A stretch of DNA of 64,000 bases from Candidatus Nomurabacteria bacterium (GTDB lineage Bacteria; Patescibacteriota; Patescibacteriia; HK-STAS-PATE-3), in NCBI GenBank assembly GCA_023898465.1, contig CP060223.1, positions 288,001 through 352,000 of the forward strand. Direction: 5' to 3'. The position numbers and the translations under genes were made by a program. Of the stretch, positions 59,186 through 61,074 are shown piece after piece. The stretch's first letter is position 1, and each line of letters starts with the position of its first letter. The notes beneath the pieces were generated by a model, which was not told where the DNA came from, ran no database searches, and was given only the letters and a program-made list of their open reading frames with translations.

Positions 59186-59290
59186 ATGCATCAACACATC
59201 CGTAATTTCAGCATCATTGCCCATATTGATCATCCCGCTACCACTCTGTTTTTTTATCTACTAAGTAGGCGGGACGGGACTCGGTAATCT
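59186..59290 (+). pseudogene. remnant 5' fragment of lepA (encodes [16 protein letters not shown]...), synonymously recoded relative to the real lepA start
   Basis: The 12-aa stretch [12 protein letters not shown] is encoded at 59201-59236 and again in lepA at 59314-59349 with about nine synonymous differences. The fragment ORF then diverges and stops. Confidence 0.55.
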
Positions 59291-59292
59291 CT

Positions 59293-61074
59293 ATGAATTC
59301 CGCTGATAAGCAAATTCGAAATTTTAGTATTATCGCTCATATCGATCATGGGAAGTCGACTTTAGCCGATCGATTCTTGGAGTTGACAGGTACAGTAGAT
59401 GCTCGGCATATGCGAGCTCAGTATCTCGACCGGATGGATTTAGAGCGTGAACGGGGTATTACGATCAAGCTCAAGCCAATTCAGATGCAGTATAAGGGCT
59501 ATACCCTGAACTTGATTGATACACCAGGTCATGTGGATTTTACCTATGAGGTATCACGTTCCTTAGCAGCTGTTGAGGGGGTAATTCTCATTGTCGATGC
59601 GACGCAAGGTGTCGAGGCGCAGACAGTCGCCAATCTTTACTTAGCTTTGCAACAGGATCTACAGATCATTCCGGTTATGAACAAAATTGATCTGCCGAAT
59701 GCTGATGTGCCGCGGGTGAGGCAGGAATTAGCCCAACTCATCGGTGTGGACCCCGAGTCAATTTTAGCTGTTTCTGCCAAGACGGGGGAAGGTGTCGAAG
59801 CAGTACTTGAGCGAATTATTGCTGAAGTGCCAGCACCCAAAGGTACGCTTGATGCACCAACCCAGGCGCTTATTTTTGACTCCTACTTTGATGACTATCG
59901 AGGAGTGATTAGCTCGGTGCGAGTGGTCAACGGCGCAATTCGCAGCAATGAGGATATCCGTTTTCTTGCTACCAAAACGCAAACCAAAGCGCTCGAGGTT
60001 GGTCACTTTGGCATGGAGTTTCAACCAAAGCCTGAAATAAAAGCCGGCGAGATTGGATATATCGTGACCGGACTGCGTGACATTGAAAAGGCAAAAGTGG
60101 GTGATACGATAAGCACCACGAAAAGCGTTGCCACAGCACTGCCGGGATATCAGGCAATGAAGCCAATGGTTTTTGCCGCACTCTATTGCCAATCGGGCGA
60201 TGAGTTTGAGCGATTGCGCGAAGGAATTGAAAAGTTAAAATTGAACGACGCTGCCTTAGACTACATTCCTGAGCATTCGCCAGCACTAGGTTTTGGTTTT
60301 CGCTGTGGTTTCTTAGGCATGCTGCATATGGAAGTGGTAGAGCAGCGTCTGAAGCGAGAATTTGGTATCAGTGTTATTGTGAGCGCCCCATCAGTGGCCT
60401 ATCGAATCACTACAACAAACAAAGAAACAAAGGATTATGCAAATCCGATGGATTGGCCGGAAGCGAATCACATAGTGAAAGTTGAGGAGCCGTGGATGAG
60501 TGTAACCGTCGTCAGTCCAAACGACTGGATAGGCCCGGTCATGCAGGCAGTGACTGATCGGCGCGGGGTGTACAAGACTACCGAGTATCTCGAAGGAGGT
60601 CGCTTAGTGTTGCATTATGAAGTGCCTTTATCCTCGTTGATCAGCGATTTTCATGATACACTGAAGAGCGTATCGCAGGGTTATGCTTCTTTAAATTACG
60701 ATTATTTAGGCTTCCGAGAGGCAGACGTGACTCGATTGGATATCCACGTTGCCGAAGAGATGGTTGATGCGCTCACCATGATTGTGAATAGCGATGAGGC
60801 GTATCGAGAAGGTCGACGCGTGGTTGATACCCTCAAGGACATCCTTCCTCGTCAACAGTTTGAACTCAAAATCCAAGCCTTGATTGGCGGTAAGGTGATT
60901 GCCTCCAGCCGAATCGCTCCATTGCGCAAAGATGTCACGGCAAAACTCTATGGAGGCGATGTCACTCGTAAGCGTAAACTCTTGGAAAAGCAGAAAAAGG
61001 GAAAGAAGCGCATGAAAACCATGGGGCGCGTTTCTATCCCGGCTGATGCTTATATTAAACTGTTGCGGCGTTAA
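59293..61074 (+). CDS. lepA: elongation factor 4 (LepA)
   Basis: [17 protein letters not shown] G1 motif, [8 protein letters not shown], NKID and the LepA-specific C-terminal domain. Confidence 0.9.
   Translation: [593 protein letters not shown]

Follow-up and report, generated by a model that had tools for sequence, protein, structure and literature searches.

A LepA-mimicking leader open reading frame and a conserved RNA hairpin upstream of lepA in Patescibacteria

Our analysis of a 64,000-nucleotide stretch of a Candidatus Nomurabacteria genome (assembly GCA_023898465.1, contig CP060223.1, positions 288,001 to 352,000 of the forward strand; hereafter the window, in whose own numbering positions are given) revealed that lepA, the gene for elongation factor 4 (EF4), is preceded by a short open reading frame (ORF) that repeats the LepA N-terminus in other codons and runs into an RNA hairpin. 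The same unit was found directly before lepA in dozens of other genomes. Selection on the peptide, the conserved hairpin and the recurrence at lepA favor a regulatory upstream ORF (uORF), which the first-pass annotation had offered as its alternative explanation, and we consider it probable that the element is a functional, translated leader joined to a structured RNA. The fuller statement, that the conserved LepA-mimicking leader ORF and its hairpin relay or regulate lepA translation, stands in our estimate at even chances. The features concerned are listed below; L numbers are our handles for loci and contigs.

59186 to 59287, forward strand: leader ORF (uORF) of 33 codons plus TAA, from the ORF reading of the window
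59198 to 59233, forward strand: LepA-mimic block of 12 codons, with the peptide of lepA codons 8-19 and 8 of 12 codons synonymously recoded
59231 to 59276, forward strand: conserved hairpin whose base includes the last His codon, from folding and covariance model R1
59274 to 59284, forward strand: box ACGGGACTCGG, 3' of the hairpin, the window and L006 variant of the family consensus G-GCGAGACTCGG
59293 to 61074, forward strand: lepA (elongation factor 4), 593 amino acids, from Pfam and from a 100% identical protein that bears the name elongation factor 4
57546 to 59177, forward strand: murJ (lipid II flippase family), from a Pfam MurJ match on the identical protein in L001

The two copies and selection on the leader peptide

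The leader ORF begins with an ATG at 59186, 8 nt past the TAA stop of murJ, the upstream gene of the operon, and its own TAA (59285-59287) lies 5 nt before the lepA ATG at 59293, which is 107 nt past the upstream ATG. The 12-residue block of lepA itself occupies 59314-59349 and is followed by GKST; the offset between the blocks is 116 nt. Across the family, the leader spells out about the first 16 residues of LepA, which include the invariant first β-strand and G1 segment. As the first-pass annotation had proposed, the upstream ORF duplicates the lepA 5' end in synonymously recoded form: the two blocks are identical at 12/12 residues and at 28 of 36 bases, all eight differences are synonymous third positions, and identity breaks off right after the His codon (CCC GCT ACC upstream vs GGG AAG TCG in lepA). 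Eight differences on ~6.8 synonymous sites, set against none on 29 non-synonymous sites, indicate that the synonymous sites between the copies are saturated; the duplicate is therefore not a recent tandem slip, in agreement with the earlier view. A repeat search of the window recovered the copies as a direct repeat pair (D1, 44 nt, 75% identity). An assembly artefact was ruled out, since the junction was identical at 321/321 nt, and in a single form, in an independent Logan assembly of SRR12358675 (L001) and the same architecture was present in dozens of unrelated assemblies. There was no composition shift at the window junction, and no promoter or intrinsic terminator was found in window 58900-59500. 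The identical LepA protein comes from a metagenome-assembled genome (MAG) named 'Candidatus Nomurabacteria bacterium', and the host is a bacterium belonging to the candidate phyla radiation (CPR).

The pattern of substitutions in the upstream copies resembled that of a coding sequence. In the murJ-ascertained set, upstream copies compared between genomes gave proportions of synonymous (pS) and non-synonymous (pN) differences of 0.99 and 0.043, respectively, and the real lepA blocks gave 1.14 and 0.019; pN/pS of the upstream peptide was thus ~0.04. Within genomes, comparison of copy with copy yielded 46 synonymous and 7 counted non-synonymous differences, several of the latter being path artefacts between CGN and AGR codons. 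A neutral upstream copy would give 69% non-synonymous differences, and this expectation was rejected (P ~7e-17). Gene conversion erases synonymous and non-synonymous differences equally and therefore cannot alone explain the deficit. Among 44 non-redundant metagenome units, the I-R-N codons, which lie outside the search pattern, were kept in all but two (L111 has L and L128 has V) and varied freely at synonymous sites, and the uORF ATG was present in 41. The C/S state at residue 5 always equaled that of the resident lepA, even in L113, whose copies use different serine codons (AGT vs TCG). The short N-terminal tails of both copies were usually alike within a genome (MSTN/MSTN, MNQ/MNQ and MNN/MNN), which indicates some concerted evolution. 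From these substitution patterns, the leader ORF appears to evolve as a coding sequence under strong purifying selection and is very likely translated. A decaying pseudogene fragment was also considered and rejected, as equal pN/pS and loss of the start were confined to a minority of loci with decayed copies (L022, L042 and, in part, L037, L084 and L058).

Hairpin, distribution and origin of the unit

In the window, the hairpin pairs C59231 with G59276, U59233 with A59274, and C59234-U59239 with G59268-G59273, with a mismatch between A59232 and C59275 and an AU-rich, variable interior. In every unit, with more than 40 different sequences folded, the hairpin began with the final His-codon base or with the CC after it. 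Hairpin interiors could not be aligned with MAFFT and formal counts cover only the five basal pairs, while the automated stem finder and folding under hard constraints gave noisy results in some units; in the model-based alignment of 44 units, 90.6% of the cells of these five pairs were paired. The covariation score was 0.177, compared with 0.053 in shuffles (0/500), and collapsed when partners were slid. The His-wobble base pairs with the base after GGG as C-G in 38 units, as the rarer U-A in two (the window and L126) and as G-C in L037, whose codon now encodes Gln (CAG) instead of His and whose partner base is now C, a compensatory change even though the peptide has decayed. The next variable pair (12-121) was C-G in 20 units and G-C in 12.

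The sister contigs L092 and L100 differ by an exact compensating pair (CAT...GGGA vs CAC...GGGG). Their hairpin, box and spacer are identical at 61/63 positions, whereas third positions differ at 6/12 in the leader ORF and 26/80 in lepA; in this pair, the non-coding hairpin, box and spacer are under ~10 times stronger nucleotide constraint than synonymous sites. The codon after DH was always CCN (Pro) in upstream copies, and this Pro codon is formed by the stem. An extended helix between the Ile-Asp codons and the box tail showed no consistent covariation by eye.

The unit is widely but patchily distributed. A regular-expression scan of 80 murJ loci for the 12-residue block, with up to three substitutions allowed, returned an upstream block followed by P, preceding the real one by 93-122 nt, in L013, L017, L019, L025, L027, L037, L084 and the window, and an upstream copy 753 nt before the real block in L058; Pro replaces Gly after the block in every upstream copy found in this way. 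Inspection by eye added degenerate or truncated forms in L010, L022 and L042, and the post-hairpin box without the block in L006, L023 and L034. The leader unit is present upstream of lepA in ~12 of ~70 murJ-lepA loci from other Patescibacteria, the murJ-locus set including MAGs labelled Kerfeldbacteria, Uhrbacteria, Falkowbacteria and Parcubacteria. A metagenome contig scan with the exact pattern F-[C/S]-I-I-A-H-I-D-H followed by CC matched 46 loci, and the same pattern gave no match in the viral contigs scanned. The common order of the unit is an ATG, 1-5 variable codons, IRNF(C/S)IIAHIDH, a CC-initiated GC-rich hairpin (16-116 nt, with a variable interior), the box GGGGCGAGACTC(GG), an AT-rich spacer of 15-35 nt, and the next ATG.

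The gene order around the unit (GT4 - DUF4012 - murJ - lepA - bPH_2 - DivIC - PpiC) is kept in the nearest relatives and widespread in Patescibacteria. The murJ-lepA synteny is kept in ~70 loci, in most of which the murJ stop and the lepA motif lie within a few bases of each other; in L017, the murJ stop and the uORF start overlap as ATGA. Inspection of the junction in sister genomes, which had been suggested with the first-pass annotation, gave a divided result: the two closest relatives, L002 and L003, lack the duplicate and have overlapping murJ and lepA, whereas the same unit occurs in many distant Patescibacteria.

Resemblance between the copies cannot be attributed to chance, since, of the 896 long ORFs compared over 1.28 Mb of related loci, lepA alone had an upstream N-terminal duplicate. 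In these fetched loci, the box (with at most one mismatch) occurred 23 times, compared with ~2 expected by chance, each time just before a lepA-type start and nowhere else. Covariance model R1 matched only lepA leaders in 870 kb, apart from one marginal match (E 0.45), and gave a single match in the 64-kb window (59225-59286, 37 bits, E 2e-7). A dispersed palindromic repeat or miniature inverted-repeat transposable element was rejected on these grounds, the box and R1 matches over the 0.87-1.28 Mb covered, all of the window among them, lying at lepA leaders with the exception of one orphan. That orphan junction, hairpin and box (ACTGATCAC-CCGCTTACGCTAAAGCTTCAGCGGG-CAAGCG; L114:1748-1792, R1 E 0.046) is located upstream of murJ in 900 nt of non-coding sequence, on the same strand as the real lepA leader and 2.2 kb from it, and is the only case away from lepA.

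No relevant match was found in Rfam 15, either for window 59100-59420 at E up to 10 or for ten other leaders at E up to 1. Sub-threshold matches to AsrC ('antisense RNA of rseC mRNA') lay antisense to the lepA 5' coding sequence in L118, L124, L113, L106, L120 and L126, presumably because this enterobacterial model overlaps lepA, and are unrelated to the leader. Five leader peptides, including that of the window, were absent from a collection of 15 billion proteins by exact look-up, so the window peptide was not called as a gene there. A literature search returned no description of a lepA leader, of a uORF at lepA or of such duplications in CPR bacteria.

Several loci depart from the common form. 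L058 (1801-2570) carries three lepA 5' copies in a row, of which the first is an upstream unit with hairpin and box, the second is frameshifted (ATGAACAAAATACGCAATTTCTTATCATCGC...) and the last is the real lepA. Between the second copy and the real lepA of this locus, about 650 nt hold a 108-amino-acid ORF with no Pfam match and a HicA_toxin-like ORF (E 4e-7 with an in-frame TGA read through); the lepA 5' junction thus seems to tolerate insertions. In L027 (6573-6677), and likewise in L131, the 12-residue block is perfect with five synonymous differences from lepA; the L027 upstream copy is in frame with murJ directly past its TAA, with no in-frame ATG, GTG or TTG. Nested older units occur in L118 (560-730) and in the leader region of L107 (minus strand). 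In L118, the first copy extends over the 3' end of murJ and part of its hairpin is deleted. L107 has at least three upstream units of rising decay, one with its junction after IRNFCI and not after DH.

The upstream copy in the window occupies the ancestral lepA start position, 8 nt past the murJ stop, and it therefore probably arose long ago, when part of lepA (the first ~25 codons at its 5' end) was duplicated in tandem. L027 reads ...AHIDH-PVIRR-GKTC*, where a hairpin of 15 nt is inserted in frame; the L013 tail is GKTHTLNRILDE, set against an 11-residue stretch of LepA; L023 has aatattcatcaaCTggcaagacttgg and no hairpin; and an older unit in L107 retains GGCAAGTCG. In light of these readings, the box looks like P-loop codons, most likely left over from the G-K-(S)-T expected after DH. 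In the simplest history, the P-loop of the upstream copy would have been split by a GC-rich hairpin, followed by duplication, loss and partial homogenization of units.

L006, the closest relative of the window by flanking genes, shares with it the box variant GGGAC[G/A]GGACT[C/T]GG, which fits vertical inheritance of the leader in the clade. The window spacer and the L006 leader have only one 16-nt match (CGGGACGGGACTCGGT vs CGGGACAGGACTTGGT), marginal at 9/500 shuffles against the last 90 nt before lepA and 97/500 against the whole 502-nt interval, a match that the shared box variant accounts for. In L006, a 128-amino-acid hydrophobic ORF with no Pfam match lies between murJ and lepA (4556-4942); the LepA-mimic block is gone, and the hairpin and box variant (CCGGCG..GTCGGG-ACAGGACTTGG) still precede lepA.

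The first-pass annotation had preferred to see a diverged remnant, the 5' end of a lepA allele that was older or alien and stayed behind after replacement recombination. This reading, together with its variant of an integrative-element footprint, draws on several observations: all-synonymous differences are the pattern of two once-functional alleles, the upstream copy sits at the ancestral start, the genes flanking the unit in the window are most similar to those of L006, its LepA being slightly closer to L002, and a HicA-like insertion separates the copies in L058. However, no integrase, element or identical att core was found between the copies, the shared core being no longer than GATCAT; only 59 nt separate the window copies, and these form a conserved, structured motif common to distant genomes; and viral contigs gave no match. 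The tree of LepA from the nearest relatives was nearly a star with no clear foreign signal: the four proteins are nearly equidistant (63-68%), sliding windows showed no breakpoint, and gene-by-gene identity to L002, L003 and L006 revealed mild discordance only. Recurrence in dozens of lineages would also require the same event many times. A unit that is recurrent, selected and structured lends no support to the remnant, and we regard an allele or element footprint as exceedingly improbable.

Ongoing duplication raises a different question, namely whether the unit is a functionless by-product, a partial lepA 5' duplication homogenized by unequal crossing-over or gene conversion and bearing an incidental hairpin. 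Arrays of identical units (L117, L118 and L119) show that duplication continues, the two N-terminal tails of a genome usually agree, some copies are degenerate (L037, L084, L058, L022, L042 and L010), and the unit is often absent. Conversion, however, cannot yield the excess of 46 synonymous over 7 non-synonymous differences with saturated pS, nor does this account agree with the ~10 times stronger conservation of hairpin, box and spacer than of synonymous sites in L092 vs L100, with compensatory stem changes where the peptide has decayed (CAG...C in L037), or with a junction and box common to distant lineages. Such a by-product is therefore unlikely.

Unit number itself varies, ranging from 0 to at least 3 among genomes; at least two upstream units stand in tandem in L101, L117, L133, L090, L118, L119 and L107, and the tandem units of L117, L118 and L119 are identical. 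Direct repeats around hairpins are deletion hot spots, and the locus could accordingly act at the DNA level as a contingency locus, in which repeats round the palindrome change unit number and toggle lepA between direct and relayed coupling to murJ; upstream copies would stay functional because contraction fuses them to lepA. The heavy synonymous recoding between the window copies would stabilize the arrangement. Selection via rare contraction is nevertheless second-order and unlikely to give a pN/pS of ~0.04 with saturated pS, the sequence conservation of box and spacer is left unexplained, and a single form was found in the window and in the independent assembly of the same sample. We judge such toggling very unlikely.

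Proposed relay or regulation of lepA translation

Many genes in the window abut or overlap, and an SD-like (Shine-Dalgarno) motif was found 4-20 nt upstream of only ~10 of 49 putative starts, with 39 lacking one, which suggests that translation relies heavily on coupling or SD-independent initiation. In such an SD-poor genome, the leader may constitute a relay or attenuator inserted in murJ-lepA translational coupling. Ribosomes leaving murJ, or loading nearby, would translate the leader ORF instead of the ancestral lepA start and would have to melt the hairpin while reading ...I-D-H-P with the conserved peptide in the tunnel; nascent peptide, hairpin and Pro codon could together slow or arrest them there. 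The speed of barrier clearance and termination beside the lepA ATG (5 nt in the window; uORF stops lie mostly within ~20 nt of the next ATG) would then set lepA translation. EF4 acts on ribosomes with translocation problems, and such a barrier may therefore make lepA expression respond to EF4 sufficiency or translation stress. We put forward this specific mechanism of stalling and relay tentatively, as a possibility that falls short of even chances. A more daring version, in which the leader is a self-referential sensor whose decoy ORF makes the N-terminal peptide of LepA and drives the ribosome into a translocation barrier formed by the His codon in the hairpin base and the Pro after it, EF4-dependent clearance or a hop onto the real gene then setting the amount of EF4, appears doubtful.

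Several observations weigh against leader-controlled translation of lepA. The case for uORF translation and ribosome pausing is an evolutionary one throughout, and the partly peptide-based ascertainment inflates the conservation of the nine codons from F to H. The lepA ATG lies outside the conserved hairpin, 20-40 nt past its end, and an alternative pairing able to mask or free this start was not found in conserved form, the GGCGGGA-UUCCGCU candidate being confined to the window. Nor can termination-reinitiation apply to every unit, since a distance of 88-122 nt separates the uORF stop from the next ATG where the hairpin is very long. The unit is dispensable, being absent from the closest relatives (L002 and L003) and from most loci, and the L027 upstream copy has no canonical start codon. 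Equality of the leader peptide with the N-terminus of LepA, including the matching C/S state and the similar tails, is also left unaccounted for.

The candidate pairing of the window joins the hairpin 3' arm (GGCGGGA) to UUCCGCU in lepA codons 2-4. A 10-nt inverted repeat, 90% complementary, also links the murJ 3' end with lepA codons 2-4 (window 59109-59118 and 59296-59305; CAGCGGATTT and AATTCCGCTG); neither pairing was seen in other loci. A model of SD sequestration was weakened by the rare use of SD motifs in the window genome. The junction GAUCAC-CCNCC(UU) (window 59225-59240 and homologous sites; GAUCACC(C/U)CC) may resemble the 3' end of 16S rRNA, GAUCACCUCCUU, a speculative likeness; if it held, the G-rich 3' arm of the hairpin would presumably be SD-like, which is equally speculative in a genome that appears SD-poor.

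Equality with the LepA N-terminus is what a programmed translational bypass would explain. The ribosome would take off at the hairpin-embedded His, slide ~92-194 nt and land on the His of the next copy, continuing into GKST, such that the upstream copy supplies the N-terminus of some LepA molecules. A bypass would account for a peptide constraint that matches LepA only up to DH, for the C/S state shared with the resident lepA (AGT vs TCG in L113), and for a hairpin formed round the last conserved codon with a covarying His wobble and sequence 3' of the hairpin codon unconstrained in frame. A matching His codon followed by GKST does lie 92-194 nt downstream, although this match is trivial, since both copies encode DH. 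Bypassing in T4 gene 60 likewise needs a signal from the nascent peptide and a hairpin formed around the codon of take-off (PMC5462505), and the lepA unit resembles it in its conserved peptide, its hairpin at a specific codon, and an identical codon downstream followed by continuation of the protein. A preprint (bioRxiv 10.1101/2022.08.31.505936) describes a mobile-cassette origin of gene 60 bypassing.

Unlike phage gene 60, the lepA unit is chromosomal and resides in CPR bacteria, has no stop beside the take-off codon, where a Pro codon stands instead, and would have to bridge 92-194 nt, a gap 2-4 times longer than 50 nt. The downstream gene is complete and independently startable, every downstream copy having its own ATG and full N-terminus, and a hop is thus unnecessary for LepA. 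A second His codon 6 nt earlier in the landing copy (A-H-I-D-H) would give mis-landing, and tandem arrays would require serial hops. Taken together, we find a bypass quite unlikely.

Comparison with known systems and implications

Regulation by a leader ORF has familiar counterparts in the leader-peptide attenuators ermCL-ermC, catA86 and cmlA and in the arrest peptides SecM-secA, MifM-yidC2, TnaC and SpeFL. Like these, the lepA unit has a short, apparently translated ORF with a conserved peptide sequence directly upstream of the gene; its invariant Pro codon after the conserved peptide recalls the ...G|P of SecM, the leader ribosome meets an RNA hairpin on its way, as in attenuators, and the unit can be repeated in tandem like riboswitches or T-boxes. 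Unlike in attenuators, the leader peptide is a paralogue of the N-terminus of the regulated protein and co-varies with it, the hairpin excludes the downstream start with no conserved alternative pairing found, and the unit lies inside an operon, where it replaces a stop-start overlap. Of the hallmarks of the ermCL type, translation of the uORF is indicated indirectly by its coding-type evolution, a conserved alternative RNA pairing that frees or sequesters the downstream ribosome-binding site was not found, and of putative stalling in the leader only the arrangement of conserved peptide, Pro and hairpin was seen.

Integrating elements such as SXT/R391 in the prfC 5' end and phage 21/e14 in icd restore their target and leave displaced gene ends. 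The lepA unit shares with them a duplicated end of a conserved gene that differs mostly at synonymous sites, the prfC target being the G1 region of a translational GTPase gene. In contrast to these cases, the interval at lepA is a conserved hairpin and box of 60-110 nt with no element, integrase or att core, and the displaced copy is under purifying selection. In eukaryotic β-tubulin autoregulation, the nascent N-terminus MREI is recognized via TTC5; by analogy, the identity of the first residues of a protein would be the regulatory signal at lepA as well, although the tubulin signal sits on the real nascent chain and that of lepA on a separate decoy ORF. We know of no bacterial counterpart of this type of N-terminus recognition.

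The leader described here is a conserved lepA element for which we found no prior description and whose peptide no gene caller appears to have reported. It represents an unusual class of uORF, one under selection at the peptide level and yet paralogous to the gene it precedes. The unit can mislead annotation, through wrongly called lepA starts and false flags of a frameshift or pseudogene, and what look like 'pseudogene scraps' beside essential CPR genes can be functional. EF4/LepA is among the most conserved bacterial proteins, and its physiological role and regulation are still debated. If the sensor reading were true, the leader would be the first autoregulatory circuit for EF4, and with a hop it would be the first case of programmed bypassing over a long range in a gene of a cellular bacterium. 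The leader gives a concrete, testable starting point for learning how some bacteria adjust EF4 and perhaps which ribosomal state EF4 responds to.

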